Below, piece by piece: positions 20,217 to 49,171 of a stretch of 64,000 nt of DNA. The notes below the pieces were generated by a model. That model was given only the letters and a program-made list of their open reading frames with translations. It was not told the origin of the DNA and ran no database searches. Each line of letters opens with the position of its first letter. Within the stretch, counting starts at the first letter, position 1. Position numbers and translations under genes: made by a program. Origin of the DNA: Anaerolineae bacterium (lineage in GTDB: Bacteria > Chloroflexota > Anaerolineae > B4-G1 > SLSP01); assembly GCA_049975525.1 (NCBI GenBank), contig JBNGCW010000011.1, forward strand, positions 45,623 through 109,622. The letters run 5' to 3'.

Positions 20217-22213
20217 GACGCGGGCTCGTCCTGCTCCTGGTCATCTTGATCAGCGGCTGCACTGCCCAGGCCGCCGACCCGCCGACCGCCTCTCCGTCAG
20301 GCGTCTGGTTCGTGGAGCTGGCGCAGACAGGCGCAACCTGGCTTTCGCCGCAGACGCTGCGTGACCTGGGCCTGGACACCGACGCCGCGCCCGCGCTGCG
20401 CCTCAGCATGGGCGCGCGCGATCTGCCCTATCTCCCCCTGCCCGCCCGCCGGGGCTGGGGCGTGCTCTTCTTCGCTCCCAACGGCACAACGCGCTACACT
20501 AAACGCACCGTCGTCCGGCTGGAACCCGGCGTCGCAGGCGACCGCATGCCCTCCCAACCCGCCGAGACCACCGCCTCACCGGCGCCCGCCCTTGCGACGG
20601 TCACCTGGGAGCAGGACATCCGCTATCTCCCGCAGGCCACCGCCGACGTGCCCTGGCTCTGGGAACCCATCTACACGCCCGGCGCTTTGGAGCAGACCGT
20701 CGTGCTCACCGACGCGCAGCCCGGCCCCATCACCGCGATGGTGCGCCTCTGGAGCCACACTGGCTTCCAGCCGCAACCCGACCACCGCGCCGTGCTCGCC
20801 TGGGAGGGCACCCCCGTCGGAGAGTGGACGTGGAGCGGGCAGGGCATGCAGACGCTCACCGCCACCTGGCCTCTCGAAGAGAGCGGCGGCGAGCACACCC
20901 TGACCCTGCAGACCCCGGCCCTGGTCGAGGACAAAGTCGCCGTCGTCTGGATCGACGGCTGGGAGATCACCTACCCGCGCCGGGTGACCCAGGGCGTCTA
21001 CACGGCAGCCGGTGACGCGCTGCGCGCGTCGCCCCAGGCCCGCGTACTCGACGTGACCGACCCCTTCGCGCCGCTGGATCTCGGCGCCGTCCCGGAAAAC
21101 GGCGTCATCGGCACGCTGCGCGGGCACCGCTACTGGATCGGCTCGCCGGAGCAGGCTCAGACGCCCGTGTCCCTGCGTCCCGCCGCGCTACTGGATACCG
21201 CCGCCCTCAGCGCGACGGAGTACCTGGTCATCGCGCCGCCCGCCTTCCGGCCGCCGATTCAACCTCTGGTCGATCACAGGAAGGCTTCCGGCCTCAACGT
21301 GGCCGTGGTCTCACCCCAGTCCATCTACGACACCTTGGGAACCGGGCAACCCGACCCCGCGTCCCTGCGCGCCTTGATCCAGACGCTACCCGACCTGCGC
21401 TACGCACTGCTGGTCGGCGACGCGACCACAGAGCCCTGGGGCTACGACGGCGAGGACGGCGCCCTGCGCGTCGTCACGCCCTTCACGCGCACCACCGTGC
21501 TCGGCGAGACGCCCGCCGACGCCCTCCTGGGCACAGACGCGACCGGACATCCGCGCGTGGCCGTGGGTCGCTTCCCCGCCGCAAGCGTCGCCGAGGTCGA
21601 GGCCATGGTGGCGAAGACACTGGCCTGGGAAGCGAACGCCGCCGAGGCCTCATCCGTGCTCCTCAACGACGACGAACAGGAGTTCGTCAGCGCGGTGGAT
21701 GCGCTGACCGCCCTGCTCCCAGAGGGAGATGATGCGCCGCGCCTGGACGCCGGCGACCCGACGTGCCGCGACACGCTGCTGAGCACGTTGAGCGACGGGC
21801 CTCGCGTGCTCACCTACGTCGGACACGGCAGCTTGCGCCAGCTGGGCGATGAGGGTGTGCTGCTGATCGAGGATGGGGCTATGTGGGACGATCCCTCGGT
21901 CGTCGTGGCATGGACCTGTCTCGCGGCACACTTCACCCACACGCGCCAGCCCTCCATGGCCGAGGTCTGGCTGGCGCAGCCGCAGGGTGGCGTGGCGGCG
22001 TTTCTTGGTCCCGTCGGCGAGACGACGACGTTTGAACAAAAACCCTATGCCGCCGCTTTCTACGCGGCGCTGCAGGAGACGCCCCGGCTGGGCGACGCCT
22101 GGCTGACCGCGCTCCAGACCCCAGGCTCGCGCGACGTGCGCTGGGGCTTCACCATCCTGGGCGATCCAGCCTTGCACCTCCCCGGCACGTCGGCGCCCGA
22201 GCGATCCCCATAA
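20213..22213 (+). CDS. Peptidase C25 family lipoprotein (paralog of 15441..18587)
   Basis: The ATGA start overlaps the upstream stop. Lipobox LLLVILISGC. His in YVGHGS and Cys in AWTCLAAHF. The N-terminal domain is paralogous to the first C25 protein. Confidence 0.75.
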   Translation: MRRGLVLLLVILISGCTAQAADPPTASPSGVWFVELAQTGATWLSPQTLRDLGLDTDAAPALRLSMGARDLPYLPLPARRGWGVLFFAPNGTTRYTKRTVVRLEPGVAGDRMPSQPAETTASPAPALATVTWEQDIRYLPQATADVPWLWEPIYTPGALEQTVVLTDAQPGPITAMVRLWSHTGFQPQPDHRAVLAWEGTPVGEWTWSGQGMQTLTATWPLEESGGEHTLTLQTPALVEDKVAVVWIDGWEITYPRRVTQGVYTAAGDALRASPQARVLDVTDPFAPLDLGAVPENGVIGTLRGHRYWIGSPEQAQTPVSLRPAALLDTAALSATEYLVIAPPAFRPPIQPLVDHRKASGLNVAVVSPQSIYDTLGTGQPDPASLRALIQTLPDLRYALLVGDATTEPWGYDGEDGALRVVTPFTRTTVLGETPADALLGTDATGHPRVAVGRFPAASVAEVEAMVAKTLAWEANAAEASSVLLNDDEQEFVSAVDALTALLPEGDDAPRLDAGDPTCRDTLLSTLSDGPRVLTYVGHGSLRQLGDEGVLLIEDGAMWDDPSVVVAWTCLAAHFTHTRQPSMAEVWLAQPQGGVAAFLGPVGETTTFEQKPYAAAFYAALQETPRLGDAWLTALQTPGSRDVRWGFTILGDPALHLPGTSAPERSP

Positions 22214-33548: not shown

Positions 33549-34526
33549 TTACGCCGGCTCCGTTCCCGGGAGAAAGACCTCGGTACCGCAGTGTTCACAT
33601 CGCGTCGTGCCCTTGCCCGCCAGCGTCATCTCGGCGCCGCAGTTGGGACACTGGCTGAGGTCTTGTAACTTCTCCGCCTCTCTCGAGTAGATGATCTCGT
33701 TATCCCAGTCCAGATAGCCCGTGAACTTGCCCTCCCTTACCAAGGCATAAATCCATTCCTCAACAAGACCCTGCGGCACGCCGAACTCCTCACTTAACGT
33801 CTGCAGCGAGACCGTGCCCCGCGAATCGATGATCCCCAGCAGCGTCAACTGCCGCTCCGCGTAGGCGGACACGGTGTAGAAACGGCGGTACTTCACCTCG
33901 CGGAGTCCCTGGAGTTTTTTGTCCTTCACAATTTTGCGCAAGAGTGGGTCGACACGCTCCTCGGAAACATCCAAAGCACGGGCCAATTGCCGGTAGGTCA
34001 CCTCCCCACCCTGGCGTCGGATGTAATCGACCGCGTCTTCCTCCAGACCTTGCTGGTGAAGCTCGCGCAGATGAGCAGGTGTCTTGACAAGTCCATAAAC
34101 CGGAAGAATGGTTGCCAGGAGCAGCACAGGAGAACAGAGACATGAAAAGCCTAGAAAGCCCGTCGCGAGATTCTCAAACTCGTCACTCGTTCCAAGCGAG
34201 ATACCGACGATCACGTTACTTAAGGCGAGCGCACCCAAGGCCAGCACGCCTAACACCGTTTTGGCCGGTGCGGCTCGCTCCCAGAGCCCCGCAATCTCAA
34301 AGAGCAGAGCGACGAGCGGCAGCACGAAGATGCCCAACACCGCGCCGCCGTTTTCGATTTGTGCATCGGCCCCCTCGAAGGCACTCATCCCATAGAATAC
34401 GGCTAACAGGGTGCCCAACAAGAGCACGCCTAGAGCCACCATAACGACCACCAAAGGACCGATAGCGGGCAGAAACACGCACAACGTTCGTCGCAGTCTT
34501 CGGGACATGGAACACCTTCCTTGCAT
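33549..34526 (-). CDS. Membrane-anchored winged-helix protein with C-terminal zinc ribbon
   Basis: N-terminal TM helices, central wHTH-like repeats, and C-terminal CPNCG...CEHCG. Alternative start at 34508. Confidence 0.5.
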   Translation of the reverse strand: MQGRCSMSRRLRRTLCVFLPAIGPLVVVMVALGVLLLGTLLAVFYGMSAFEGADAQIENGGAVLGIFVLPLVALLFEIAGLWERAAPAKTVLGVLALGALALSNVIVGISLGTSDEFENLATGFLGFSCLCSPVLLLATILPVYGLVKTPAHLRELHQQGLEEDAVDYIRRQGGEVTYRQLARALDVSEERVDPLLRKIVKDKKLQGLREVKYRRFYTVSAYAERQLTLLGIIDSRGTVSLQTLSEEFGVPQGLVEEWIYALVREGKFTGYLDWDNEIIYSREAEKLQDLSQCPNCGAEMTLAGKGTTRCEHCGTEVFLPGTEPA

Positions 34527-35965: not shown

Positions 35966-36191
35966 AGTGGCACCTTCACGGCCAATGGGTCTGGCCGGCT
36001 TTACTTCCGCATCAACGATGACATTCTCAGTGACAACGAGGGGGTACGTGACCGTCGAAGTGGAAATTTTACCAGCGGAAGAATAAAAGCACGCCGGCGT
36101 GCAGCCGGGGTATCAGGCTCAAAGTGACAGCGGAGTGTCGTCTCAGAGTACATGCATGCGACTCCGCTGTACTACAAAGATCTAGGGTTCG

Positions 36192-36923
36192 TCAACCGGC
36201 CTGAAGATGCCGAAACGGCCCTTTGCGGTCAAAAAGCCGACGCCACAACCCGGCAAAGGTCAAGCGTTGACCTTCCCATATCCCCTTGGGCCGACTCATA
36301 GGCTTGACATCCGGCACGCGCAACTCCACGGTTTGCGGCGGGTAGACGACAAAAGTCTTGAGCGCCCCCAGCTCAGGGTACGCTTCTATGTGTTCCTGAG
36401 CAGCGAGCTCGGTGATGTCTCCGTAGAGACGGTAGAAATCTTCCGTCATCAAAATGTACTCCCGCGAGGGCAGGCTGTTCTTGAGCAGACGATGGATCAG
36501 GATGACGTTGTTGCCGGCCAGCTCTTCAAACTGCCGGATCTGCTTCATGACGACTTCACCGTAATGCAACACCGCCTTGAGCTGCAGCTGGGCGATGTTC
36601 CGGCAGGCCTCGCAGGGGCAGCCCCCTTCACCGGCCTCCACAAGCGTGGTCTGTTTCTGCTTGAAAGCCGCAAAAAACCCCAACACCTGCCGGGCGATGT
36701 CGTGCACGGCGGCCTGGGGGTTTTCTTCAACCTCCGCGTAGAGCAGCGCTGCGTCACCCTCCAACTTATTGAGCGTGAGCGGATAATCGGCTTTGTCGAT
36801 GACGGCCTCCATCAGCTCCGTGATGATCTCCTCCGCGTGAAGCAGGCTGGCAGCGTGCATCTGAAGGAACCGCGTGTAGCCGCTGATGTCAACCAGGACG
36901 AGAGCAACTTTCTTGATCTCCAT
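36192..36923 (-). CDS. DUF2652-like protein with class-III nucleotidyl-cyclase-like palm motifs
   Basis: LVLVDISGYTRF is like FADIVGFT, and KLEGDAALLYA is like KTIGDAYM. GGAGGA RBS. Confidence 0.6.
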   Translation of the reverse strand: MEIKKVALVLVDISGYTRFLQMHAASLLHAEEIITELMEAVIDKADYPLTLNKLEGDAALLYAEVEENPQAAVHDIARQVLGFFAAFKQKQTTLVEAGEGGCPCEACRNIAQLQLKAVLHYGEVVMKQIRQFEELAGNNVILIHRLLKNSLPSREYILMTEDFYRLYGDITELAAQEHIEAYPELGALKTFVVYPPQTVELRVPDVKPMSRPKGIWEGQRLTFAGLWRRLFDRKGPFRHLQAG

Positions 36924-36943
36924 GATCTATCCTCCAACAATAG

Positions 36944-37003: not shown

Positions 37004-37162
37004 AGTGATATCTTAGTATAGTCAAGATGATGAACCGCGCAAACGCAGCCTCATTATAAACAGCGGCTGGCTCACGTCAACCAAAACCGTTTCATTTTTT
37101 GATCAAACAGGTACAACGCACCCCTTCACGGTCACGAGGCCCGTCAACTGGGGCCTCCACAG

Positions 37163-38056
37163 TCAGAGATAACAATCCTGAAAGGTCTCGGTGTCGAGGC
37201 GCAGATCCCCCAGGCGCAGCACCGCGACCGTCTCTTCCCGTCCGGGGAGGAGCGGCGCGCGCAGATGAACGACACGCTCGTCTGCACCCTCCACAAAGCC
37301 GAGGGCCAGCGCAAAGCCCTCCCGATCTTCCAGCGCCGCCAAGCGCCCCGGCAGAAAACGACGCGCGGGGAAGACCGCCAGTCCGTGGTAGTTGAGCGAG
37401 ACCCGGCGCGCTTCTGCGAAGTACTCACGGTAGCAGGCCGCTCGATAAGCACGCCGCTCCTCCCGAGAGCGCAGCCGCACTCCCGCCGGCACAGAGAGCT
37501 CGATCACGCGCACGCCGGGCAGCGGATGCAGGGGCAGCAGCAGCGAGCGCAGCTCCCGCTCGCGTTGAAAAACCACGACGGTACAGGGGCGCAGCAGCTC
37601 CACCTGCGCCCACTTGAGGTGGGTGCCGCCAAAGCGGGCGTCGACGAACCCCGTGGTGTCGATGATCAGCGTCTCGGCCCGGGTCGCCTGCACAAGGCGG
37701 GAGAGGCCCAGGATCACGCGGAGCATGTGACCGGGCGGCGCGTTACCCCCCACAAACCAGAGATGTCGCTCCGCGCAAGGCGGAAAGGCGACCTCCCCCG
37801 AGCTTTCGTTGCGGGCCACGACCATCGTCGTCGGCAGCCGGTAGCTGTTTTGCCCCATGTCGGCGTCGAGGAAAGCGACGTACGTGTGCGTCTCCAGTAA
37901 ACGCCGGTAGAGGTAACGGGCGAAGGTGCTTTTCCCCGTGTTACTGGCGCCCACCACCAGAATCGGGCCGCGCCAGGCGGCGATGTCTAACGCCTGCCAG
38001 CTTTCCGGCACTTCGATATCGTCCCGATCTATCATAAGGACCCAACAACACCCCAC
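37163..38056 (-). CDS. Clp1/Grc3-like P-loop polynucleotide 5'-hydroxyl kinase family protein
   Basis: Walker A GASNTGKST and the Clp1 clasp motif LDADMGQ (DxDxGQ) are present. Confidence 0.55.
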   Translation of the reverse strand: MGCCWVLMIDRDDIEVPESWQALDIAAWRGPILVVGASNTGKSTFARYLYRRLLETHTYVAFLDADMGQNSYRLPTTMVVARNESSGEVAFPPCAERHLWFVGGNAPPGHMLRVILGLSRLVQATRAETLIIDTTGFVDARFGGTHLKWAQVELLRPCTVVVFQRERELRSLLLPLHPLPGVRVIELSVPAGVRLRSREERRAYRAACYREYFAEARRVSLNYHGLAVFPARRFLPGRLAALEDREGFALALGFVEGADERVVHLRAPLLPGREETVAVLRLGDLRLDTETFQDCYL

Positions 38057-38131: not shown

Positions 38132-39640
38132 TTAGGGCGCGACGACTTCGGTGTTGAGCAACGCGCCCTGGGGCCCATAGGTCGCTCGATAGAGCCAGCC
38201 ACCGTACTCCACGGCGACGGCGGCACAATACTGATCCGCCCGATCGGTGTAGCTGTACCACGTCCAGTTGGCGCTGCCCCCCGCCGTCAACGGTGGAGGT
38301 TCACCCTCGATGCCGTTGGGCCAGCCGTCCTCTTTGCGATAGTAGTTAGCGTAATACCATCCCTCCTCCGATCCATCACCGTTGCGGATGAGGAACAAGG
38401 GCTGGTAAGCGGGCCAGTCGATAGTCGCACCGCTGACGTTATGATACGTCATCTTCATCTCGCACCAGCGACTCTGCCCCTCTCGCCCCTCATATCCCAT
38501 GGGACCCTCCCACGTGATCTCCAGGGGGGCGCTGCTCGCAGCGGGCGCCTCCGTCTCGGCAGGCGCTTCGGTTGCGGCAAGTGGCTCCGAGGCTACAGGC
38601 GCGGCCGCACCCGAGGCGCTCTCGAGTTGCCAGACGCGCAAATCATCCAGGCAAATGGTGACATTAGCGTCCTCGTAGGTGGCCCCGCCGATGCCGATGC
38701 GCCCTTCGGCGAAGATGTCGGCCTGCACGGTGTTGATGAGAACGCCGTTCACATACAAGTAGAGGGTATCGCCCAGGCGACCCATCCCCAGATAGTTTTC
38801 TCCATCCGGTGCAATGTGTTGCGCCTCCGTCCACGAGACAAGAGCATCCTGCCACACGTCATCTTTGAGGAAGAACAACGCGTAGGATTGCGTGCTGGCG
38901 TCGATTTCGTACCAGACCAGGTTATCCCCGTCTGCGCCGTATCCCAGTCCGCAGCTGGCGTCGGTCATCGGATCGACGGTACACTTAACCTCGGCGAAGA
39001 ACTCGGTGGTACGGAAAGGCTCGTACCACTCCCAGGCGGTCATGTCACTCACCCGGATATCGATACAGTATTCGCCGTTGGCCGGCACGTTGTAGATGAC
39101 GTCGCCGTCGTCGATCCCCCCCCAGTTGTTGCGGTTGTCGCTGAAGTCCTCTTCAAAGCGCAACACAGCGCCCTCGGCGACGCTGGCCGTGCCCACCACC
39201 GTCCACGTGTGTGTGCCTGTTAGTTCGACGTTGTAAAGCGTCTCCACCACCTCGAGTTCCGGATTGCCGGCCTGCAGGTCGTAGACCGCAGGGGGAATGC
39301 CGGAAAGGGTCCGTCGCTGACCGGCCGCGAGAGGCATATCGAGCCAATTGGAACCCCACTCATTGCTCTCCACCGGGGAGATATAGAGCTCGGTAAGAGG
39401 AACTCCGCTGTCGTTGATGACCTCCAGCGAGGCCGTCCTCTCTTCTTGGGGGGGAAGTGTTTCCTCCACCGGCTCACGGGTAGCCATCGGACGCGAGGTG
39501 GGGGTAGGTTCCATCTTCACGGTCTCCTCGGTGGGAGGGGTCTCCGTCGCCGCAGGGGGAGTTAAATCAAGCAAACTACAGCCGAGGGACACAAACAACC
39601 CTATAGCGATAACGATAAAGATCCGCCGTCGGTATTTCAT
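38132..39640 (-). CDS. Secreted lipoprotein, unknown function
   Basis: AAGGAG RBS. Signal peptide with lipobox LGCS. Pro/Thr/Glu-rich linker. Confidence 0.6.
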   Translation of the reverse strand: MKYRRRIFIVIAIGLFVSLGCSLLDLTPPAATETPPTEETVKMEPTPTSRPMATREPVEETLPPQEERTASLEVINDSGVPLTELYISPVESNEWGSNWLDMPLAAGQRRTLSGIPPAVYDLQAGNPELEVVETLYNVELTGTHTWTVVGTASVAEGAVLRFEEDFSDNRNNWGGIDDGDVIYNVPANGEYCIDIRVSDMTAWEWYEPFRTTEFFAEVKCTVDPMTDASCGLGYGADGDNLVWYEIDASTQSYALFFLKDDVWQDALVSWTEAQHIAPDGENYLGMGRLGDTLYLYVNGVLINTVQADIFAEGRIGIGGATYEDANVTICLDDLRVWQLESASGAAAPVASEPLAATEAPAETEAPAASSAPLEITWEGPMGYEGREGQSRWCEMKMTYHNVSGATIDWPAYQPLFLIRNGDGSEEGWYYANYYRKEDGWPNGIEGEPPPLTAGGSANWTWYSYTDRADQYCAAVAVEYGGWLYRATYGPQGALLNTEVVAP

Positions 39641-39760: not shown

Positions 39761-41143
39761 TTACTCTTCCCCAGCCAGAAAGATCTGCTTCGAAACGGTC
39801 AGACGCTGCATCTGCCAGAGGATGAAACGCACGCGCTGGGAGAGGGCCGCGCTGATATTCCAAAGCAAGCGGGTGCCCAAAATCGCGTCGTCCTCACAAA
39901 GCGCCAGCAGCCGCTCCCGATCCAGCGCCAGCAGCACGGCGCCCCCGTCACCGGCGATCAAATCCGCGCTGCGCTCCTGCTTGTCGAAAATCGCCAGCTC
40001 GCCGGCCAGCTGACCGGGCAGCAGGTCGGCGACGTGCCGCTTATGCTTCGACTCCTCGCCCGGATGCTCAGGATCGCTCCACACCTCCACCGTGCCGCTG
40101 CGAATAATGTAGAGTTCTTGACCACTTTCGGCGACGTTGACGATCTTCTCTCCTGCCGCGTAGATGCGTGGCTGACATTGGGCGGCCAAACGCAGGCGTT
40201 GTGCCTTGTTCAAGTCGTTGCCAACGTCAGAGTGGGCCAGAAACCGCGCGATTTCCTGGACCTGCCCCAGCTCCTCGTCGCTGAGCGAGGCATCCAGTTT
40301 CTCTTGGAAACGCGGCAAGCCGAGGTAGGCACTGACCAGCCGCCGGGTGACCTGAGGCGCCTCAAACTGAGGCCAATGTCCGGCCTTGGGCAAAATGCGC
40401 AGGTCGGCCTCCGGCCACTCGTCGGCCACGATGCTGGCATCCCGCAACGGGACCGTGTTGTCCTCGGCGCCCCAGATGATGAGCGTCGGCGTGTCGAGCC
40501 GGTGGAGATGTGAGGTCAGATCGTTGTTCCGCATGGCGAAAAAGCACTCGGCGCGCACCCGGCCTTGACCGGGACGGCGCGCATCGGACCGGATCTTCTT
40601 GTAATCCGCCTCGGTAATCCCCGTGCGCTCCGCAAAGGAAGCCGGGCGCATGATCCGATCGGTGACGCCCACAAAACCCTGCTCCACAGCGGAGACAATC
40701 AACCGGCCCAGGCCAAACCGTTCCAGCAGCGTGATGGGCGAGACCACCAGGTTAATGTAGGGGGAAAGCCGCCCGGTGATCGTGGGGTCCAGTAACACCA
40801 TCCGCTCGATCAGGGCGGGGTGACGTAGAGCGAGGGTCACCGCGATCATCCCCCCCATGGAATGCCCGACGACGACAACCGGAGCGTCACAGACTTCACC
40901 GAGGAACTCGGCCAAGAGATCTGCGTAGGCCGGGATGGTCGTGCGATGCGGGAGAGGGGGCGACTGGCCATAGCCCGGTAGGTCGACAGCCAGACAGCGA
41001 AAGCGCTGCCGCAAAATCTGGACCATCGGCGAGAGAGCGTACCAGGAACTGGACCAGCCGTGGATCAACAACGCGATCTGTCGTTTGGGCACCCCCTCTT
41101 CATGAACGTGGATCTGCTGCCCGCGAACATCGTAGAAAGCCAT
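39761..41143 (-). CDS. Alpha/beta-hydrolase fused to a C-terminal cyclic-nucleotide-binding (CAP effector) domain
   Basis: HGWSSSW, the GHSMGG nucleophile elbow, and C-terminal ...GELAIFDKQERSADLIA... (GELAL/RSA signature). Confidence 0.75.
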   Translation of the reverse strand: MAFYDVRGQQIHVHEEGVPKRQIALLIHGWSSSWYALSPMVQILRQRFRCLAVDLPGYGQSPPLPHRTTIPAYADLLAEFLGEVCDAPVVVVGHSMGGMIAVTLALRHPALIERMVLLDPTITGRLSPYINLVVSPITLLERFGLGRLIVSAVEQGFVGVTDRIMRPASFAERTGITEADYKKIRSDARRPGQGRVRAECFFAMRNNDLTSHLHRLDTPTLIIWGAEDNTVPLRDASIVADEWPEADLRILPKAGHWPQFEAPQVTRRLVSAYLGLPRFQEKLDASLSDEELGQVQEIARFLAHSDVGNDLNKAQRLRLAAQCQPRIYAAGEKIVNVAESGQELYIIRSGTVEVWSDPEHPGEESKHKRHVADLLPGQLAGELAIFDKQERSADLIAGDGGAVLLALDRERLLALCEDDAILGTRLLWNISAALSQRVRFILWQMQRLTVSKQIFLAGEE

Positions 41144-41716
41144 ACGGAATCCCCTTCACCTTTGGAAAAGCCTAAATCTGAATTCAATCAACCGTATCCA
41201 CATCCAACCATGATACGATGGGGATCAGAATTTAATGAACCTGGAACTCTTTAAGGTATGGCCTCTGTACCTAATAGTAACCTCGACTTTTGCGATCACA
41301 GGGATAACAAATTTGATTTCACATAGTAGCATTGAAACTCAACAAAACCTCGCTCATATCGAACCGGGCTTACAATTAGATGCGCAATTAAGGTTGCCTT
41401 TCCATGGCGGGCCCCAAAATGCGATTGAATGACTTGTCGCGGTCTGATGGCCGGAAAACCTGGGCATTTGCGGTTCGGCAGATGCTAAATTCAAGCCAAC
41501 AAGCCAGCGGCACAGTCTTATCTCGCTCCATGGTCACGCCGGATAAGGTGTGTTGAGAGTGTATTGGCTGCATTATAGTCACTTTTATCAGATGTTCAAA
41601 CTATCGCAAAACTCGAGTAGTAACCTATAAACGCGATAAGTTCAACACCAGATCGGGGGATCATCTCAGAATCTCCACCGGCGGCTGCAAAAGTCTCACG
41701 CAGAAGCGACACGAAC

Positions 41717-41758
41717 ACAAAAAACTCCAAAGCCCCCTCGCCGGAGAGGACTTTGGAG
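41717..41758 (-). terminator. Rho-independent terminator for the beta-helix protein gene
   Basis: Minus-strand reading gives CTCCAAAG...CTTTGGAG followed by TTTTTTGTG. Confidence 0.6.
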
Positions 41759-41779
41759 TTTGGGTGCGGGTGCGAGAAA

Positions 41780-44700
41780 CTACGGACGGCTCACCAGGGG
41801 CAGGAAAACTGAGTAAGGCCAGCCCTGAGCCGTGGTCGTATCAACCACGGAAGCCGAGACCGATCCATCGCCCAACGAGGTCGCGGTCACCGTCAGGACG
41901 TCAACGACCCCTTCTGCCGTTCCCGGAGGTATGGAGACGTAGACCTTCACCGTCGTCGAGGCGCCCGCCGCCAGGGTCGCAGCGATAGGCTGGACAGATC
42001 CGCTCCAGCCCTGACTGGACGCCGCACTCAGGTGGAAGGTGTCGGAGCCATTGCCGTCGTTGGTCAGCGTATGCTCATAAACAACCTGCGTCCCCGGCAA
42101 GCCTCCCACCGCCCGGTCGGGTGTGAAGGTCAAGGCGGGCACCAGGGCCACCGTGATATCGTCTTGCGCGCCATCTACCACCGCCGGGTTGGGCACCGAA
42201 GCGGCGGTCACGTTGATAGAGTCCGTCGTCCCCGCGGCCAGACCGGTCGGCACATCGACCTTCACCAGCACCGTCGCCGATCCGGCGGCCGGTACCGTCA
42301 CCAGGGCCGGCATCACGTGCACCGGCCAACCGTTTGCGGAAACGGCGCTGACGTTGAAGGTGTCCTGTGCGTTACCGGTGTTCTGCACCGTGTGTGTGAA
42401 GACCGCCTGAGTGCCCGGATCGGGCGAGGCGCTGAGGTCAGGTGTCAGAGAAACGCCGGAGAGACGCCACTCGTAGCAGCCCATATCCGCGTCACCGCCG
42501 GCGGGCACCGGTCGCGGCACACCGTCCAGATCGAGGGCCGGCGCCGCTGCCGTCTCGGCTGCGTCCACCGCCGGCGAGGTCTGCTGGAGGTGATAGTCGC
42601 CTCCGCCGACGAAGAGCGGGTTCTGGTCGATGTTGCCCGCCCCGGACCAGCCGCCCTCGATGTCAGAGTACGTAGCCTTCATCGTCTGCGTCACCGGATA
42701 AGCGCTGGTGAAGGCAGCGGTGTGCCCCCAGAGGATGGTGTTGGAGAGATAGGCCGTGGTGGTGAGTGTGCCGCTGATGTAGACGCCGCTTTCCCCATTG
42801 TTGGCGATGGTGTCGTTGAGGCTGCGGAAATCGGCCTCGTCTACGAAAACGCCGGCCGCCAACTGGCTGCCGCCGGTGTTGTCGGCGATCAGGTTGTTGA
42901 CGCTCCGGCCCCATAGCGGGTCGGTCAGATTCTCGTTGTCGATGACCATGCCCGCGCTCCGATAACCGGCGGTGTTGCTGAGCACCCGGTTGCGCTCCAG
43001 GAAATACTGGCTGTCATCCCCGCCCTTGAGGTAGATGCCTGCGCTTTCGGTGATGGCCGTATTGGCGCGGATGAGATTATGCTCCATCACTAACCGCGAG
43101 CCTCTGTACAGTTCGGCGTAGAATCCGGCCAGACTATTCTGGGCCTCGTTGCCGGCGATGGTGTTATCCACCATAGTCAGCATGCCGGCGTCGGAGAGAT
43201 CGGTGTACATCCCGGCGTAGCTGCCGCCGGTGGTGCCGGTGAGATAGGCAGTGTTGGAGAGCACCTGATTGCGGCGAAAGTCCACTTGGCCGCCGTACTT
43301 GATGTCCTCGAGGTAAAGCCCGCCATAATCGCCGCCGAGCACCTGGGCGGGTGCGGCGATGATCTGGGTTCCGACCCGCACCGTCTCGGTGATGCCGGCC
43401 CGGTTGCCGACGAGCCGGTTATCCCAGAAACGCATCACTGTGCCATCGGACACGCTATCGAAGTAGAGCCCGCCATAGTTGCCGCCGGCGGTGTTGCGGT
43501 TGAACTGGTTGCCGATGAAATCTACCTCGGCCTTCTCGATGTTGTAGAAGCGGCAGCCGCCGTAGTCGCCAAGGGCCGTGTTGTCGTTGATCAGGTTGCG
43601 GTTGAAGTGGACCACCGCTCCGTTGTACCAGTAATCGTCGAAGTAGCAGCCGCCGCCCGCGTCGCCGGCCCAGTTGCGCTGCAACTGGTTGTCCTCGAAG
43701 TACCAGACTGAGCCGTAGTCGACGTAGTCGTCGAAGTAGAGGCCGCCGCCGTCGTCCGTGGAGATATTATCGTTGATCTGGTTACCCGTCATCCACACGG
43801 TGGCGCCCTCGTCGATGGTGTAGAGATAGATCCCCCCGCCGCCGTAGGAGCCGGTGCTGGAGATGGTATTGTGGCTGATAACGTTGTCGTGGAACTGGAC
43901 GCGGCCGCCACTTTCGACTCTGTAGAAGTAAAGTCCGCCGCCGGCGCCGCCGGTGGTCAGGTTGCCGGTGATCACGTTGCGGTTGAAGGCCAGCGTGACG
44001 CCCTCGTAGGCCGGATGGTACATGTAGACCCCCCCGCCGTCGCCGTCGGAGACGTTGTCCACGACGACGTTGTCGCTGAAAGAGACGTCAGCCCCATCAG
44101 AGCCGAACTCGGAGCTGTAGAAGCCGCCCCCTGCGCCGCCGGCCGTGTTGCCGCGCAGCACATTGCGGTCGAAGGTGCCCAGCGCCCCTTCGTAGGCGAA
44201 GTAGTAGTTGTAGAACCCGCCTCCCTCGTCGCCGGCCGTGTTGTTGAGGAACTGGTTGTCGTCAAAGTGAACCTCGGTGCCATAGTGGGTCTCGTAGAAG
44301 TAGACCCCGCCGCCGTCACCGGTGGCGGCCTCGTTGTTTTCAAAGACGTTGCGGCTCATCGAGAGCTGGCAGCCCTCGGTGCAGTAGTACCAATAGAGGC
44401 CACCGCCGCTGTTCCCGGCCCTGTTATCGCGGTAGACGCCGTCGTCAAAGACCAGCTGCCCCGATCCTTGGTGGGCCTCGTAGAGGTAGAACCCGCCGCC
44501 CTCGTCGCCGGCCGTGTTGCGTTCAAAGGTGAGATGATCGGCCTGGATGGAGACAGCCGGGGGGGCGTTGTAGTAAATCTCGTCCATGTAGAAGCCGCCG
44601 CCGTCGGCGCCGGCCGTGTTGCTGACGAAGCGGGCGTGGCTCAGCTCCAGGTAGGCGCGGTAGTTGGGGCCGTAGTCGAAATAGATGCCGCCGCCGTCGC

Positions 44701-46165
44701 TGGCAGCGGTGTTGGTCAGGAACTCGGTCTGGCCCAACAGCATCCTCGAGCCAGCGTAGATATCGCCCACGTAGAGGCCGCCGCCGTCGGCGCCGGCCGT
44801 GTTGCGCTCGAACCGGCTGCCGGTCAGGTCCACCAGGCTGCCGTTGCTGGCTTGGGCGTACCCGCCGCCGCCGTTGTCGCCGGCCGTGTTGCTGATCACC
44901 TGGGCGTTGGTGGCGATGACCGTGTCGTTGCTGGCGTCCAGGTAGACGCCGCCGTAACTCCCGCCGGCGACGTTGTCATAGACATACAGATTGGTCGCAG
45001 TGATTGTAGAGTGGTCGTAGGCCTCAAAGTAGGCCCCACCATAGTCGTCGCCAGCCCGGTTGCCCGTGACCCGCGTGTTGGGCAAGTCTATGGCCGAGTT
45101 GTATCCGGCGTAGATGTATCCGCCGCCATAGTCGTAGGTACCACCGTTGACCGTGTTGTCCGCCAGCACCAAATTGTCGCCGGTGACCTGGCTGTTGCCA
45201 TAGGCATATAGATACAGCCCGCCGTAGCCCCGGTAGTTGGCCGTGTTGTTCCGGAACTCGTTGTCGTAGAAGGTGGCGCTGGAGTTGTAGTACATATAGA
45301 CGTAGCCGCCGCCGTAATAATCGTCGGCGTAGTTGCCGATCACGCGGTTGCGGTCGAAGGTGCCGTGGGAGTTGTACAGGGCGAAGTAGAGGCCGCCGTA
45401 GTAATGGTAAGGAAATCCAGAGGATCCATCTATGGCGGTGGTGTTATTCATCACCAGGTTGTCCTCGATCTGGAACTGGCCAAAGCCCTCCACGTAGGCG
45501 TACAGGCCGCCGTAGTAGTCTCCCGAGATGTTCCCTACAATGTTGTTGCCGGTCAGCGTGAGCGTGCCGGAAAGATAGACGTTGGCGTAGATGCCGGCGT
45601 AGTCGTCGGACGAGGTGTTGGTCATCACGTCGTTGCCGGTGATGTGCAGGTCGGAGCGGTTGTCCACATCGGCATAGATGCCGCCGCCATCGTCGGCGCT
45701 GTTGTCATGGATGAAGTTGTCGTGGATGGTCACGACGCTATCGTCTTCCACGTCTACGTAGATGCCGCCACCGTCGTTGGCGCCGGCGTCGCCGTTGGCG
45801 ATCTCGAAACCGTCGATGGTCACCTCGATCCCGGCGCCCTGGACGTCGATCACGCGCGCCGCTACGTTGCCCACGGTGGTGCTGCGCGGCGTGCGGCTGC
45901 CGAAGCCGGCCTCATATCCGCCCAGCAGCGTCAGCGACTTGGTGATGACCAGGTTTTCGTTGAAGGTCTCGTTGCGCACGTGGATGGTGTCGCCGGGGTT
46001 GGCCGCGTCGATGGCGGCCTGGATGGTGGCGTAGTCGCCACCGGTCCCCACCGTGATGATAGCCGCGCGCGTCAGTTGCGGCGTCAGCCACAACAGGGCC
46101 AGGCCCAGAGCGGCGACGCTCACGGCGGTCAAGATACTGAACAAAGCGTTGCGTTGCGTCCTCAT
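41780..46165 (-). CDS. Giant secreted right-handed parallel beta-helix repeat protein with C-terminal CARDB/Ig-like domains
   Basis: Signal peptide. Dozens of NTAGxDGGGxY-type beta-helix repeats. Two C-terminal Ig-like domains. The protein ends ...PYSVFLPLVSRP. Confidence 0.8.
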   Translation of the reverse strand: MRTQRNALFSILTAVSVAALGLALLWLTPQLTRAAIITVGTGGDYATIQAAIDAANPGDTIHVRNETFNENLVITKSLTLLGGYEAGFGSRTPRSTTVGNVAARVIDVQGAGIEVTIDGFEIANGDAGANDGGGIYVDVEDDSVVTIHDNFIHDNSADDGGGIYADVDNRSDLHITGNDVMTNTSSDDYAGIYANVYLSGTLTLTGNNIVGNISGDYYGGLYAYVEGFGQFQIEDNLVMNNTTAIDGSSGFPYHYYGGLYFALYNSHGTFDRNRVIGNYADDYYGGGYVYMYYNSSATFYDNEFRNNTANYRGYGGLYLYAYGNSQVTGDNLVLADNTVNGGTYDYGGGYIYAGYNSAIDLPNTRVTGNRAGDDYGGAYFEAYDHSTITATNLYVYDNVAGGSYGGVYLDASNDTVIATNAQVISNTAGDNGGGGYAQASNGSLVDLTGSRFERNTAGADGGGLYVGDIYAGSRMLLGQTEFLTNTAASDGGGIYFDYGPNYRAYLELSHARFVSNTAGADGGGFYMDEIYYNAPPAVSIQADHLTFERNTAGDEGGGFYLYEAHQGSGQLVFDDGVYRDNRAGNSGGGLYWYYCTEGCQLSMSRNVFENNEAATGDGGGVYFYETHYGTEVHFDDNQFLNNTAGDEGGGFYNYYFAYEGALGTFDRNVLRGNTAGGAGGGFYSSEFGSDGADVSFSDNVVVDNVSDGDGGGVYMYHPAYEGVTLAFNRNVITGNLTTGGAGGGLYFYRVESGGRVQFHDNVISHNTISSTGSYGGGGIYLYTIDEGATVWMTGNQINDNISTDDGGGLYFDDYVDYGSVWYFEDNQLQRNWAGDAGGGCYFDDYWYNGAVVHFNRNLINDNTALGDYGGCRFYNIEKAEVDFIGNQFNRNTAGGNYGGLYFDSVSDGTVMRFWDNRLVGNRAGITETVRVGTQIIAAPAQVLGGDYGGLYLEDIKYGGQVDFRRNQVLSNTAYLTGTTGGSYAGMYTDLSDAGMLTMVDNTIAGNEAQNSLAGFYAELYRGSRLVMEHNLIRANTAITESAGIYLKGGDDSQYFLERNRVLSNTAGYRSAGMVIDNENLTDPLWGRSVNNLIADNTGGSQLAAGVFVDEADFRSLNDTIANNGESGVYISGTLTTTAYLSNTILWGHTAAFTSAYPVTQTMKATYSDIEGGWSGAGNIDQNPLFVGGGDYHLQQTSPAVDAAETAAAPALDLDGVPRPVPAGGDADMGCYEWRLSGVSLTPDLSASPDPGTQAVFTHTVQNTGNAQDTFNVSAVSANGWPVHVMPALVTVPAAGSATVLVKVDVPTGLAAGTTDSINVTAASVPNPAVVDGAQDDITVALVPALTFTPDRAVGGLPGTQVVYEHTLTNDGNGSDTFHLSAASSQGWSGSVQPIAATLAAGASTTVKVYVSIPPGTAEGVVDVLTVTATSLGDGSVSASVVDTTTAQGWPYSVFLPLVSRP

Positions 46166-46797: not shown

Positions 46798-47739
46798 TTA
46801 CAATTCTTCCCCACAGCCGGCATGAGAGGACCAGCAGAGCGTCTGAGCCGCCACAACACTCACGGCCTCGAAGCGCACAGCATCGCCGGGCAGGCACTGC
46901 GCCAGCAGCGGCAGATCGGCGCGGATCACCGTAGCGATCTTGGGATAGCCGCCCGTGGTCTGGTGATCGGCCAACATGACGATGGGCTGGCCGTCGGCGG
47001 GCACCTGCACACTGCCGGCGACGACGCCGTCGGAGACGATCCCGGTGGCATCACGGTGGGCAATACGCGGTCCCTGCAGGCGCGCGCCCATGCGGTTGGA
47101 ATCGGGGCGGATCTTGTATGGAACGTTCAAGAACGTCTCCAATCCTGCTGACGTGAAATAGTCATCCTGCGGGCCCAGGACGACACGCAGCGTGGGCGCT
47201 GCCGTGTACGGCGGGCGCCGGGACGCGGGCCACGCGCGCCCCGCCTGCATCGCCGGGTGCGGAACGCCCTCACCGAGGGGTAGCCGATCCCCGGCGCGCA
47301 GCGCGCGGCCCTCCAGGCCGCCGAAACTCCCGGGCAGATAGGTGCTGCGCGAATCGAGGAAAGGAGGCACATCGATGCCCCCATCGATGGCGAGATAGGC
47401 ACGCGCACCTCGTCGTCGCGCGCCGAAACGCAGCCACTGTCCGGCCCGCAGAAAGACCGCGTGCCACGTGGGAACGCGGAGCGTCCCCGCCCAGAGCTCG
47501 AAGTCGGCACCGCAGACAGCCACAAGGCTGGGACGCGAGCAGCGCAGCGTCGGCCCGGTGAGGGTGATCTCCAGGCCCGCCGCGCCCTTGGGATTGCCCA
47601 CCAATTGGTTCGCGGCGCGGAAAGCGGCTGCGTCCAGGGGGCCGGAGGGCGGCACACCAAAGCGCGCCCAGCCGACGCGCCCCGCGTCCTGGACGGTGGT
47701 AAGCAGACCCGGTTCCCAGATTTCCAGCACGCCCCTCAT
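46798..47739 (-). CDS. pxpC: 5-oxoprolinase subunit C
   Basis: Homology begins at MRGVLEIWEPGLLTTVQDAGR. The annotated 454-aa ORF has a spurious Arg/Gly-rich N-terminal extension overlapping pxpB. Confidence 0.8.
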   Translation of the reverse strand: MRGVLEIWEPGLLTTVQDAGRVGWARFGVPPSGPLDAAAFRAANQLVGNPKGAAGLEITLTGPTLRCSRPSLVAVCGADFELWAGTLRVPTWHAVFLRAGQWLRFGARRRGARAYLAIDGGIDVPPFLDSRSTYLPGSFGGLEGRALRAGDRLPLGEGVPHPAMQAGRAWPASRRPPYTAAPTLRVVLGPQDDYFTSAGLETFLNVPYKIRPDSNRMGARLQGPRIAHRDATGIVSDGVVAGSVQVPADGQPIVMLADHQTTGGYPKIATVIRADLPLLAQCLPGDAVRFEAVSVVAAQTLCWSSHAGCGEEL

Positions 47740-47741
47740 CC

Positions 47742-48401
47742 TCAGCCATCCTCCGCGATGAAGCGCACCCTGTCTCCGGCCTGAAGCAGGAACGGGGCTT
47801 CCCGCGCCGGATCGAAGAGCGCCAGATCCGTGCGCCCCAGGATGCGCCAGCCGCCGGGCGTATCCAGCGCGTAGACGCCCGTCTGCCCGCCCGCGATGCC
47901 GACGCTGCCCGATGGAACGCAGGTGCGCGGCGTCTCCAGGCGCGGCGCGGCGATGCGGGGATCGAGGCCCTGCAAGTAGGCGAAGCCCGGCGCGAAGCCC
48001 AGCATCGCCACGCGGTACGTGGGCGCCGTGTGCAGGCGGATCACCTCGGCCGGGGAGAGGCCCGCGTGCTGGGCGACGCTCGCCAGATCGGGACCGGCGT
48101 CGCCGCCGTAGCGGACGGGGATCTCGATGAGACGACCTTCCGGCGGCTCGATCTCCGCCCATGCATCCAGATGGGCGCCGAGGGCTGCCTCGACCTCGTC
48201 CGCCGGGCAGACGCAGGGATCGTAGCGCACCAGGAGCGCGCGATAGGTGGGCACCGTCTCGATGAAGCCGGGCAACGTGTCGGGCGTGAGGAGGGCATCA
48301 AGGGCGTGAACCCGCGCCGTGAGCCTCGCGTCGACGCGGTTTCCGAATTCGACGGTGAAGGCCGCCTCGCCCACGGGCAGGATGCGCGGATAGGCACTCA
48401 C
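47742..48401 (-). CDS. pxpB: 5-oxoprolinase subunit B
   Basis: MSAYPRILPVGEAAFTVEFG... matches the KipI/PxpB family. Coupled to pxpC with a 2-nt gap. Confidence 0.8.
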   Translation of the reverse strand: MSAYPRILPVGEAAFTVEFGNRVDARLTARVHALDALLTPDTLPGFIETVPTYRALLVRYDPCVCPADEVEAALGAHLDAWAEIEPPEGRLIEIPVRYGGDAGPDLASVAQHAGLSPAEVIRLHTAPTYRVAMLGFAPGFAYLQGLDPRIAAPRLETPRTCVPSGSVGIAGGQTGVYALDTPGGWRILGRTDLALFDPAREAPFLLQAGDRVRFIAEDG

Positions 48402-49171
48402 GGCGCCCCCACGATCTCCGCCAGCGGCGCAATGGTCACGCCGGCGGCCTCCAGCACCTGCCGCAGTTCCGCAGCGATGCTCACCGCGTCCGGTGTGTCG
48501 CCGTGCACGCAGAGCGTATCGATCTCCAGGGGAATGGTGACGCCGCCAAGAGTTTGGATCTCGCCCTGGGTGACCATCTGCACGGCGCGCGCCGCCGCCT
48601 GGGCGGGATCGTGGATGACGGCGCCGGCCTCGCTCCTGGGCACGAGGCTACCGTCGGCCTGATAAGCGCGGTCGGCGAAACCCTCCCGCGCGACGCGCAG
48701 CCCCTGATGGCGGGCGGCATCCGCCAGGGCCGAGCCGGGCAGGGTGACGACGATGAGCCGTGGATCGAAGGCAGCGACGGCGCGGGCGATGGCGGTGGCG
48801 CTCTCGCGGTCTTTCACCGCCCAGTTGTAGAGCGCGCCGTGCGGCTTGACGTGGGTGAGACGTGCGCCGGCGCCCCGGGCGAACCCGGCCAGCGCGCCCA
48901 GCTGATAGAGGACAAAGGCCTCAATCTCTGCAGACGTCAGCGCCATCAGCCGCCGTCCGAAGCCCTGGCGGTCCGGGAAACTGGGGTGCGCGCCCACGGC
49001 GACGCCTTTCGCGACAGCCTCTGCTACCGTCTGCCGCATCACCTGGGGATCACCGGCGTGCAGCCCACAGGCGATGTTAGTCGAAGTAACCAGATCCAGC
49101 ATGGCGGCGTCATTTCCCAGCGTGTACCGACCGAAACTCTCTCCCATATCACAGTTTAGATCAACATACAT
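48398..49171 (-). CDS. pxpA: 5-oxoprolinase subunit A (LamB/YcsF)
   Basis: MYVDLNCDMGESFG... matches the LamB/YcsF signature. Overlaps the pxpB start. Confidence 0.85.
   Translation of the reverse strand: MYVDLNCDMGESFGRYTLGNDAAMLDLVTSTNIACGLHAGDPQVMRQTVAEAVAKGVAVGAHPSFPDRQGFGRRLMALTSAEIEAFVLYQLGALAGFARGAGARLTHVKPHGALYNWAVKDRESATAIARAVAAFDPRLIVVTLPGSALADAARHQGLRVAREGFADRAYQADGSLVPRSEAGAVIHDPAQAAARAVQMVTQGEIQTLGGVTIPLEIDTLCVHGDTPDAVSIAAELRQVLEAAGVTIAPLAEIVGAP

Follow-up and report, generated by a model that had tools for sequence, protein, structure and literature searches.

The gene under study is an ordinary member of the DUF2652 family, and its 243-aa product almost certainly belongs to that family and adopts a class III nucleotidyl-cyclase fold. 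The cyclase prediction for the family has been known since 2016, when DUF2652 was described as a predicted class III cyclase subfamily (Ramakrishnan et al. 2016, Biology Direct, PMC4886424). The original prediction had paired the gene with a nearby gene for an alpha/beta-hydrolase fused to a cNMP-binding domain (CNBD), as a Pycsar-type anti-phage system. We see instead that the proximity of the two genes is lineage-specific synteny, and that the DUF2652 gene appears to be a normal chromosomal signalling gene outside any defence system. The label that fits it is 'DUF2652 family, class III nucleotidyl-cyclase-like', with no Pycsar or defence flag, which is a routine annotation point.

The features found in the window, meaning the whole 64,000-nucleotide stretch of DNA that was analysed, are collected in Table 1. 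The list of open reading frames confirms a minus-strand frame that carries both of the motifs originally picked out, LVLVDISGYTRF at residues 8-19 and KLEGDAALLYA at residues 53-63. The ATG start is credible because a GGAGG motif lies 7 nt upstream and homologs in the alignment begin at the same MEIK... position. A promoter candidate sits within the 239-bp gap upstream of the gene and a terminator-like hairpin lies downstream; judged from these signals and the Shine-Dalgarno motif, the gene appears to form its own transcription unit. An Rfam scan of the window found nothing.

Table 1. Features of the DUF2652 locus, in positions of the window.
Feature	Position	Strand	Basis and remarks
Terminator-like GC hairpin followed by a T-run	36094..36108	-	consensus match only; ~85 nt 3' of the DUF2652 stop codon
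DUF2652-family class III nucleotidyl-cyclase-like gene	36192..36923	-	ATG-started ORF, 243 aa
Shine-Dalgarno motif GGAGG	36930..36934	-	read from sequence; 5' of the ATG at 36923
Sigma-70-like promoter candidate, TTGACG-16 nt-TATAAT	37053..37080	-	consensus scan, 11/12; consensus match only
Clp1-like P-loop gene	37163-38056	-	Pfam CLP1_P, E 5.5e-31
Lipoprotein gene, 502 aa	38132-39640	-	sequence and Pfam; N-terminal lipobox-like ...VSLGC; no family match
Alpha/beta-hydrolase and cNMP-binding fusion gene	39761-41143	-	Pfam Abhydrolase_1, E 3e-31; cNMP_binding at residues 326-418, E 3.9e-12
Intergenic spacer	41144-41779		~640 bp, GC 0.39-0.53; 18-bp-stem terminator-like hairpin and promoter-like site

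The Pfam profile for DUF2652 (PF10851) is matched over its full length (1-118 of 118, residues 34-156) at an E-value of 1e-30, the score of 106.6 bits exceeding the cut-off of 22.1. Together with the 1345 homologs that were found, this puts the match far beyond chance and bears out the earlier guess at the family. NCBI lists an identical protein under the name 'DUF2652 domain-containing protein', JGI labels homologs "class 3 adenylate cyclase", and no NCBIfam model matches the protein. The cyclase family PF00211 (Guanylate_cyc) gives a partial match (residues 3-129, profile 6-116 of 183, E 8.7e-4) whose 19.4 bits fall short of the gathering threshold of 21.9. An AF2 model (pLDDT 89.3, pTM 0.87) shows the secondary-structure order E-H-H-E-E-H-E..., and the best 50 Foldseek matches to it in the PDB are all cyclases of class III, adenylyl or guanylyl, with probability 1.00 and a TM-score on the target of up to 0.78; examples are CyaC (1wc1, E 3.5e-10) and an AC C2 domain (1cjv_B, TM 0.78). 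The predicted cyclase fold is thereby upheld. Searches of PDB sequences with the protein as query returned chance matches or nothing, and the family profile found no PDB sequence at E<=1, so that only fold comparison or a Pfam profile reveals the relation between DUF2652 and the cyclases. A GGDEF diguanylate cyclase was considered and rejected, since the turn reads KLEGDA, no GGDEF Pfam match is seen, and the structural matches are to AC/GC and not to GGDEF domains.

Among soluble cyclases of known structure, Spirulina CyaC (1WC1), P. aeruginosa CyaB (3R5G), Synechocystis Cya2 (2W01) and M. tuberculosis Rv1900c (1YBT) share the fold (probability 1.00, TM 0.66-0.74) as well as the two metal Asp motifs, the Lys of KxxGD and the Arg in the G..V.L..R helix. 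The protein studied here differs from them in its low identity (12-20%), its sub-threshold PF00211 score, the replacement of Asp by Glu and of Asn by Ile, and the deletion of the KGK hairpin. It also has an extra CxCxxC insertion and an extra C-terminal amphipathic helix (residues 212-231), and lacks a fused sensor domain.

The two sequence motifs had been read as the metal-binding Asp motifs of class III cyclases, and this holds in an hhalign comparison with AC5 C1, where D12 aligns with D396 and D57 with D440; in class III cyclases these Asp residues belong to beta1 and to the turn between beta2 and beta3. Against AC2 C2, using a trimmed profile because the untrimmed one aligned junk from the tail of P0046, K53 aligns with K938, E133/134 with D1018, I141 with N1025, R145 with R1029 and K116 with the phosphate Arg. 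K53 and E134 thus fall at or beside the canonical K938/D1018 pair, with Glu standing where the canonical Asp is, and the gamma-phosphate-binding Lys of the beta7-beta8 'KGKG' hairpin is deleted. As PF00211 is sub-threshold and the profile finds no PDB sequence, the mapping of the C-terminal half rests on low-probability hhalign alignments to two cyclase sequences, and it agrees with the published assignment (PMC4886424).

Conservation was assessed over 265 family members, and the pattern suggests purifying selection: D12 is kept in 264, D57 in 263, K116 and K148 in 264 each, and R145 in 246. The protein is a short form of the family, with the K53/E134 pair, Ile141 at the position of the transition-state Asn and CxCxxC at residues 102-107. 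Ile occupies that position in 249 of the 265, so the Asn of the usual Asn-Arg pair on helix alpha4 is absent while the Arg (R145) is present. Long-form paralogs fused to SRPBCC (22-32% identity) keep the same catalytic residues together with the canonical Asn. At the base-reading positions, 227 sequences have K53/E134, and 19 have both residues swapped together to E53/K(R)134; this co-variation predicts ATP-type and GTP-type subgroups within DUF2652.

We judge it reasonably probable that the protein acts as a stand-alone cytosolic cyclase, a reading that takes in dimerisation, catalysis, substrate and metal site as a whole. Two short-form copies would pair head-to-tail, as other class III cyclases do, and both active sites would form in trans. 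One protomer's D12 and D57 would hold the pair of divalent metal ions, base recognition would fall to K53 and E134, and phosphate binding and transition-state stabilisation would be the task of the partner's K116 and R145, perhaps joined by its K148. The reaction would convert NTP to a 3',5'-cyclic NMP and pyrophosphate. In class III cyclases a Lys/Asp pair goes with ATP and a Glu/Cys-type pair with GTP; since K/E is similar to the adenine-type Lys/Asp, we would guess first at cAMP made from ATP.

The change from Asn to Ile and the loss of the hairpin Lys imply that activity could be low or the chemistry altered. The short form may even not be a cNMP synthase at all, serving instead as a nucleotide-binding regulator, as a Cys-cluster sensor, or in some other nucleotidyl transfer on the cyclase scaffold. 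Besides those two losses, the PF00211 score and an invariant Cys3(His) insertion that is absent from canonical cyclases point this way, the PDB has an entry for a protein that resembles class III cyclases and binds ATP yet lacks cyclase function (6yii), and a literature search found no experimental paper on any DUF2652 protein. However, paralogs down to 22% identity keep the two metal Asp residues, K116, R145 and K148 almost without exception, the long-form paralogs keep the Asn, and several active class III cyclases do without it (PMC4886424). With the complementary losses in tandem fusions described below, these observations make a non-synthase unlikely in our view, and we retain the cyclase reading.

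In a set of tandem DUF2652 proteins (P0241-P0246 and P0046), domain 1 keeps D12 and D57 but has K53 changed to Gln and R145 lost, whereas domain 2 keeps K53, E134, H144 and R145 and has lost D12 and, in most cases, D57. Such complementary degeneration is the C1/C2 pattern, as a functioning active site formed in trans would be expected to show. The residues are split as in mammalian membrane AC C1/C2 and human soluble AC, with the Asp pair in the first domain and the Lys, acid and Arg in the second; unlike these, the protein studied here is single-domain and presumably homodimeric. An AF2 model of a tandem protein finds the soluble domains of sAC and AC9 as its best PDB matches over ~480 columns, but at a TM of only ~0.4 and a pTM of 0.57, so that on structural grounds head-to-tail pairing stays a proposal.

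The residues C102, C104, C107 and H29 are conserved in 98% of the 265 members, and domain 2 of the tandem forms has lost all four. The CxCxxC segment is an insertion of ~11 residues between alpha3 and beta4 relative to canonical cyclases. Its three Cys residues, probably with H29, would most likely form a Cys3His metal site on the side of the fold that carries the Asp residues, acting as a structural Zn site or as a redox/metal switch. A functional precedent is found in the clade D cyclase AnPycC, a class III-type cyclase whose Cys3His Zn site is essential for activity (PMC11224242). The two sites differ in position, that of AnPycC lying in a C-terminal ribbon (C221/C223/C260/H263).

The neighbourhood is as first described in its layout: Pfam confirms the hydrolase fusion on the same strand, 2,838 bp from the DUF2652 gene, with the Clp1-like and lipoprotein genes between them, all on the minus strand. 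In the fusion, the catalytic GHSMGG motif is intact and the CNBD carries a GELA...RSA phosphate-binding cassette (Glu/Arg). Beyond it, the claim of an AT-rich island was overstated and has been dropped, as there is only an ordinary intergenic spacer (Table 1).

Read as a Pycsar-like module, the locus would respond to infection by making a cyclic nucleotide that activates the hydrolase through its CNBD, and the cell would be killed or arrested. The pieces invite this reading: a small stand-alone cyclase-fold protein and a CNBD enzyme with an intact cassette lie 2.8 kb apart on one strand, a 74%-identical relative has kept the arrangement, and the CNBD matches PADLOC PycTIR models weakly (E 1e-6), through the generic cNMP-binding domain only. 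PycC proteins are likewise small class III-type cyclase domains that form homodimers and have two metal Asp residues (PMC11224242). However, no PADLOC model, PycC included, matches the cyclase at E<=0.1, and no PycC structure is among the best 50 Foldseek matches. In Pycsar operons, the effector gene directly adjoins the cyclase gene; here two genes intervene, and each partner has its own promoter-like and terminator-like signals. Defence systems generally sit in defence islands or mobile elements and are patchily distributed. The flanks of this locus are instead housekeeping genes, such as those for gyrB, a PHP-domain protein and a nitroreductase; the synteny in the relative extends equally to unrelated genes; and the family records include 0 phage and 2 plasmid sequences. 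The hydrolase fusion is itself 66-91% identical over more than 100 Anaerolineae/Chloroflexota clusters and, judged by this sequence conservation, is a highly conserved Anaerolineae core protein. As the only CNBD protein nearby, it is neither a TIR nor a TM effector, whereas Pycsar effectors are of two types, with the CNBD fused to TM helices or to TIR, and are encoded next to PycC genes in defence contexts (PMC11224242). The context largely refutes the Pycsar reading, which we regard as extremely improbable.

Conservation of the linkage speaks against the particular pair more directly. Among 80 divergent DUF2652 loci, the hydrolase fusion, the Clp1-like gene and the lipoprotein gene were each found in none, and no DUF2652 gene was found near hydrolase-fusion orthologs at eight loci in other genomes. 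A metagenome scan with the hydrolase alignment returned mostly generic alpha/beta-hydrolases (GHSMGGM pattern), true fusion orthologs amounting to ~10 loci. The adjacency is seen only in the same narrow lineage, in the two related lineages examined.

A cNMP-binding gene of some kind does occur within 10 kb of DUF2652 genes in 5 of the 80 loci (1.2 Mb), including L039, L008 and L065, so the complete lack of co-occurrence that would have counted against the original prediction is not strictly what is seen. In control-like loci, no independent cNMP-binding neighbour was seen in 0.7 Mb (Poisson P about 0.05), and the five neighbours are not demonstrably an excess over background. L039 is a convincing operon, in which DUF2652 paralogs (DUF2652-SRPBCC) flank a gene for a transporter-like (MFS/TLC)/HEAT/cNMP-binding protein. 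The five loci, with this operon among them, support a tie of the cyclase-like family to cNMP signalling generally, not this particular pair and not a role in defence. The position of M. tuberculosis Rv2561 close to the cNMP-binding Rv2564/65 (PMC4886424) points to the same general tie.

The two genes might still work together outside defence, as a lineage-specific pair in which a cyclic nucleotide made by the DUF2652 protein allosterically regulates the separately transcribed hydrolase in normal physiology. Their same-strand proximity in both lineages and the intact hydrolase and CNBD motifs agree with this, as does the linkage of DUF2652 genes to genes for cNMP-binding proteins at L039, L008 and L065 and, in M. 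tuberculosis, of Rv2561 to Rv2564/65. In about four independent lineages, a plain alpha/beta-hydrolase gene also lies upstream of the DUF2652 gene at a distance of at most 1.6 kb, and such genes lie near mycobacterial members too (PMC4886424 Table 2). Against it stand the lack of linkage, in either direction, beyond the immediate lineage, a number of cNMP-binding neighbours that is not demonstrably above background, and the genome beyond the 64-kb window, which may encode other cyclases that feed the hydrolase CNBD. Alpha/beta-hydrolase genes are among the most abundant in bacteria, so that their presence at ~15 of the 80 loci is near expectation. We consider such a pair improbable. The fuller version, in which a metal- or redox-gated (Cys3His) adenylyl-type DUF2652 cyclase controls the neighbouring cNMP-gated hydrolase through its product, is a long shot; if true, it would be an undescribed housekeeping route from a cyclic nucleotide to ester or lipid hydrolysis, and not a defence.

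The closest published relatives for comparison are the mycobacterial ones. M. tuberculosis Rv2561/Rv2562 (P9WL99) belongs to the same family and length class (~240 aa, single domain), and the protein studied here shares the signature reported for mycobacterial and proteobacterial members, with two metal Asp residues, Lys and Glu for the substrate, the Arg kept and Asn replaced by Ile (PMC4886424). The genomic neighbours differ, and the 2016 data set did not include Chloroflexota, to which our Anaerolineae gene adds a member. The CxCxxC(+His29) cluster, the K53/E134 swap, the C1/C2-like tandem fusions and the L039 operon are new here, the first three being features not described in that work; they are small additions. 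For a first biochemical study of the DUF2652 family, which has a member in M. tuberculosis, they offer concrete handles.

Antisense shadow ORFs of the DUF2652 gene were filtered out of the neighbour clustering, and a regular expression for the phosphate-binding cassette of cNMP domains was abandoned as it missed known positives. The recurrent neighbours that emerged (ECF sigma, ABC exporter, thioredoxin, YjeF_N, Pyr_redox_2, GTP cyclohydrolase II and SDR) were set aside, being mostly one Anaerolineales synteny block or promiscuous families. Independently of the DUF2652 gene, the highly conserved Anaerolineae alpha/beta-hydrolase-CNBD fusion is a further candidate, as an enzyme that cNMP may regulate.

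The 243-aa target is a DUF2652 protein (PF10851; E 1e-30, 106.6 bits against a Pfam cut-off of 22.1) with a class III cyclase fold, an assignment that we regard as practically certain. Both cyclase-like motifs quoted in the original prediction are present, at residues 8-19 and 53-63, since the translated ORF opens MEIKKVALVLVDISGYTRF and includes NKLEGDAALLYA. The Guanylate_cyc model (PF00211) scored 19.4 bits over residues 3-129, below its cut-off of 21.9, and no NCBIfam or PADLOC model matched the target. For an AlphaFold2 model (35 homologs in the alignment; pLDDT 89.3, pTM 0.87), each of the best 50 Foldseek matches in the PDB was the catalytic domain of a class III adenylyl/guanylyl cyclase, such as CyaC (1wc1, E 3.5e-10), CyaB (3r5g), Cya2 (2w01) and Rv1900c (1ybt), and mammalian C2 (1cjv_B) gave a TM-score of 0.78. 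As PDB searches by sequence alone, with the target and with a family profile, returned no relatives, the relationship is remote yet structurally unambiguous. The predicted fold had already been published for DUF2652 by Ramakrishnan et al. (Biology Direct 2016; PMC4886424), where a reviewer remarked that PSI-BLAST or HHpred easily recovers the relation. The NCBI entry identical to the target is named 'DUF2652 domain-containing protein [Anaerolineae bacterium]', and several homologs already carry the JGI name 'class 3 adenylate cyclase'. This kind of protein is known, and a literature search found no experimental characterisation of it.

Catalytic positions were assigned with hhalign against mammalian AC5 C1 and AC2 C2, reference sequences that serve for motif registration only. 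In this register D12 and D57 correspond to canonical D396 and D440, K53 to K938, E133/E134 to D1018, I141 to N1025, R145 to R1029, and K116 to the phosphate-binding Arg of the 'RVGIH' strand. The same alignments show that the β7-β8 'KGKG' hairpin (K1065) is deleted, and that residues ~97-107 (…GGCPCEAC…) are an insertion compared to canonical cyclases. Conservation among 265 family members is very high for D12, K116 and K148 (264 each), D57 (263), H120 and C104 (261 each), H29 and C107 (260 each) and C102 (259), followed by I141 (249) and R145 (246). The conserved residues persist at 22-32% identity in long paralogs fused to an SRPBCC domain, in which the canonical Asn ('DVNLAHRL') stands at the position taken by Ile in the short, single-domain forms. 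We also see that positions 53 and 134 swap together in the family alignment: 227 sequences have K/E and 19 have E/K(R). This looks like covariation at the canonical base-specifying pair and predicts ATP-type and GTP-type subgroups, with K53/E134 of the target being the adenine-like combination. The published group signatures are 'D,D / K,E / R', with Ile in place of the transition-state Asn, for mycobacteria and proteobacteria, and 'D,D / E,K / H,R' for Bacteroidetes (PMC4886424). The CxCxxC motif (C102, C104, C107) and H29, ~98% conserved in the 265 members and kept in distant paralogs, may make up a Cys3His site for metal binding or redox sensing; PMC4886424 says nothing of Chloroflexi, of tandem forms, of zinc or of clustered cysteines. 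In four homologs of 270-280 aa (P0095, P0099, P0119, P0120) the conserved amphipathic helix at the C-terminus continues into a hydrophobic stretch rich in Gly (…LSYFVGGIGGNIAATI…; alignment columns ~260-300) that resembles a membrane anchor, a hint that the family C-terminus is possibly membrane-associated.

Out of 1.84 billion, an exhaustive family search retained 3,116 cluster representatives with E<=1e-3 and 1,983 with E<=1e-10, and certain members of ~420-463 aa comprise two DUF2652 domains (P0241, P0242, P0243, P0245, P0246 and P0046). According to the family HMM alignment, the first domain keeps D12, D57, H29 and all three Cys residues, has Gln in place of K53 and no longer has R145. The second keeps K53, E134, I141, H144 and R145, and has lost D12 and all three Cys, mostly also D57, and H29 in 4/5. 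Read from sequence, this complementary degeneration shares out the catalytic roles as C1 and C2 do in pseudo-heterodimeric class III cyclases, and it argues that the DUF2652 family would work as a head-to-tail dimer with active sites assembled in trans. H29 is kept or lost along with the three Cys residues, which suggests that they form one Cys3His metal site, located on the side of the Asp pair. In a model of the tandem protein P0046 both domains are confident, with a pTM of only 0.57, and its best PDB matches, at TM ~0.4, are cyclases with two domains, among them human sAC (8co7; E 3.5e-15 over ~480 aligned columns). A Cys3His zinc site is needed for activity in the clade D Pycsar cyclase AnPycC but, unlike the putative site of DUF2652, is C-terminal (PMC11224242); it is a precedent for the Cys cluster rather than a homologous feature.

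The target had been proposed to form a Pycsar-type anti-phage pair with a hydrolase-CNBD fusion (CNBD, cNMP-binding domain) encoded 2,838 bp away. This reading is not supported: the analysis found no PycC-type cyclase, no CNBD-TM or CNBD-TIR effector, no adjacent effector gene, no conserved pairing and no defence context. The block of 1461-aa repeat protein, hydrolase-CNBD fusion, lipoprotein, Clp1-like protein and DUF2652 recurs in contigs encoding the identical protein and a 74%-identical relative, as do the unrelated flanking PCI and PHP genes. We compared 80 divergent DUF2652 loci (1.22 Mb; Chloroflexota, Proteobacteria, Bacteroidota, Verrucomicrobiota and others), and none contains gyrB, PHP, PCI, Clp1-like, lipoprotein, hydrolase-fusion or repeat-protein neighbours. 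The fusion itself is strongly conserved in Chloroflexota/Anaerolineae (66-91% identity, >100 clusters), and DUF2652 was found neither within 10 kb of its orthologs at eight long-flank loci (0/8) nor in 713 kb of related loci. None of 50,697 phage records contained DUF2652; of 72,556 plasmids only 2 carried it, and these are megaplasmids of Rhodobacteraceae. With both locus comparisons empty, no phage occurrence and the block limited to related contigs, the pairing is lineage-specific synteny.

Genes for cNMP-binding proteins lie near DUF2652 in only 5/80 loci (L008, L035, L039, L065, L080; ORFs <=10 kb away by an iterated cNMP-domain HMM), with no statistically demonstrable enrichment and no additional ORFs when the HMM was relaxed to E<=1. 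L039, from an Anaerolineales MAG, holds a compact same-strand array whose overlapping stops and starts suggest an operon: a short DUF2652, a 263-aa ORF, three DUF2652-Polyketide_cyc2 (SRPBCC) fusions, a 1015-aa CNBD protein (MFS/TLC-like, HEAT and cNMP_binding; E 5e-20) and a fourth DUF2652-SRPBCC fusion. This array is the best context evidence tying DUF2652 to cNMP signalling. A CNBD-CBS gene is divergently adjacent to DUF2652 in L065, a double-CNBD ferredoxin-domain protein is encoded 2 kb away in L008, and in M. tuberculosis cNMP-binding Rv2564/Rv2565 lie beside Rv2561 (PMC4886424). Together these neighbourhoods support a probable cyclic-nucleotide role for the family. Plain α/β-hydrolase genes without a cNMP domain lie 0.1-1.6 kb upstream of DUF2652 in nine loci (L005, L047, L070, L043, L046, L060, L073, L078, L079) from ~4 independent lineages and recall the α/β-hydrolase neighbours of mycobacterial DUF2652 genes (PMC4886424); this is suggestive, but not clearly above background.

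A Pfam search of ORFs found the window neighbours as originally described, all on the minus strand. The target has a strong Shine-Dalgarno GGAGG 7 nt 5' of its ATG, and alignment shows a start position common to homologs. A promoter-like site lies in the 239-bp gap upstream, and a hairpin with a T-run follows the stop. Terminator-like hairpins also lie downstream of the lipoprotein gene and of the hydrolase gene, the latter with a promoter-like site ahead of it. These signals, promoters and terminators being consensus matches only, point to separate transcription units. The most likely function, which as a whole statement we favour with moderate confidence, is that the target would act as a homodimeric cyclase, probably of the adenylyl type, that has a Cys3His metal site and is expressed from a promoter of its own.

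Positions of features in the window and, where a locus is named, in compared loci
Feature	Position	Strand	Details
GC-rich stretches (~2 kb each)	20001-22000; 47001-49000		GC 0.71; window mean ~0.61
Membrane protein	33549-34526	-	several hydrophobic segments; C-terminal PCI-like winged-helix region (PF01399, E 3e-10); zinc ribbon
DUF2652 target ORF	36192-36923	-	ATG start, 243 aa
CxCxxC motif	36600-36620	-	
Promoter-like site	37080-37053		TTGACG-16-TATAAT, near-consensus
CLP1_P P-loop protein	37163-38056	-	Pfam E 5.5e-31
Lipobox-bearing protein	38132-39640	-	502 aa; no family match
Abhydrolase_1 + cNMP_binding fusion	39761-41143	-	E 3e-31; E 3.9e-12 over residues 326-418
Intergenic spacer	41144-41779		~640 bp; GC 0.39-0.53
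Terminator-like hairpin	41722-41761		18-bp stem
Repeat protein	41780-46165	-	1461 aa
DUF2652-CNBD array	L039:7491-17240	+	
Hydrolase-CNBD and CLP1_P genes	L089:10001-12242	+	16 bp apart
Lipoprotein gene	L082:2748-4256	+	two ORFs (282 + 217 aa)

The 'AT-rich island' noted beyond the hydrolase is just an intergenic spacer; it holds an unusually long terminator-like hairpin, 3' of the upstream 1461-aa gene, and the promoter-like site for the hydrolase gene. Rfam gave no match anywhere in the window. The 1461-aa protein, with no Pfam match on record, is rich in degenerate, beta-helix-like Gly/Asp/Asn repeats and has an N-terminal signal-like segment. The PCI-like gene adjoins the PHP-domain gene, an arrangement kept in the related lineage. 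In the window and in L087-L098, the hydrolase-CNBD fusion has an intact GHSMGG nucleophile motif and GELA...RSA cNMP cassette. The fusion is by itself a candidate for a cNMP-regulated esterase. In L089, from a distant genome, the CLP1_P gene directly follows the hydrolase gene, whereas the window lineage has the lipoprotein gene between them; this close arrangement occurs in 1/8 further ortholog loci outside the window lineage, and the hydrolase and Clp1-like genes may form a pair. Finally, in L082, a metagenome contig encoding a DUF2652 protein identical to the target, gene calling splits the lipoprotein gene into two ORFs instead of one; variation between strains, a frameshift or a fault in the assembly could account for this.
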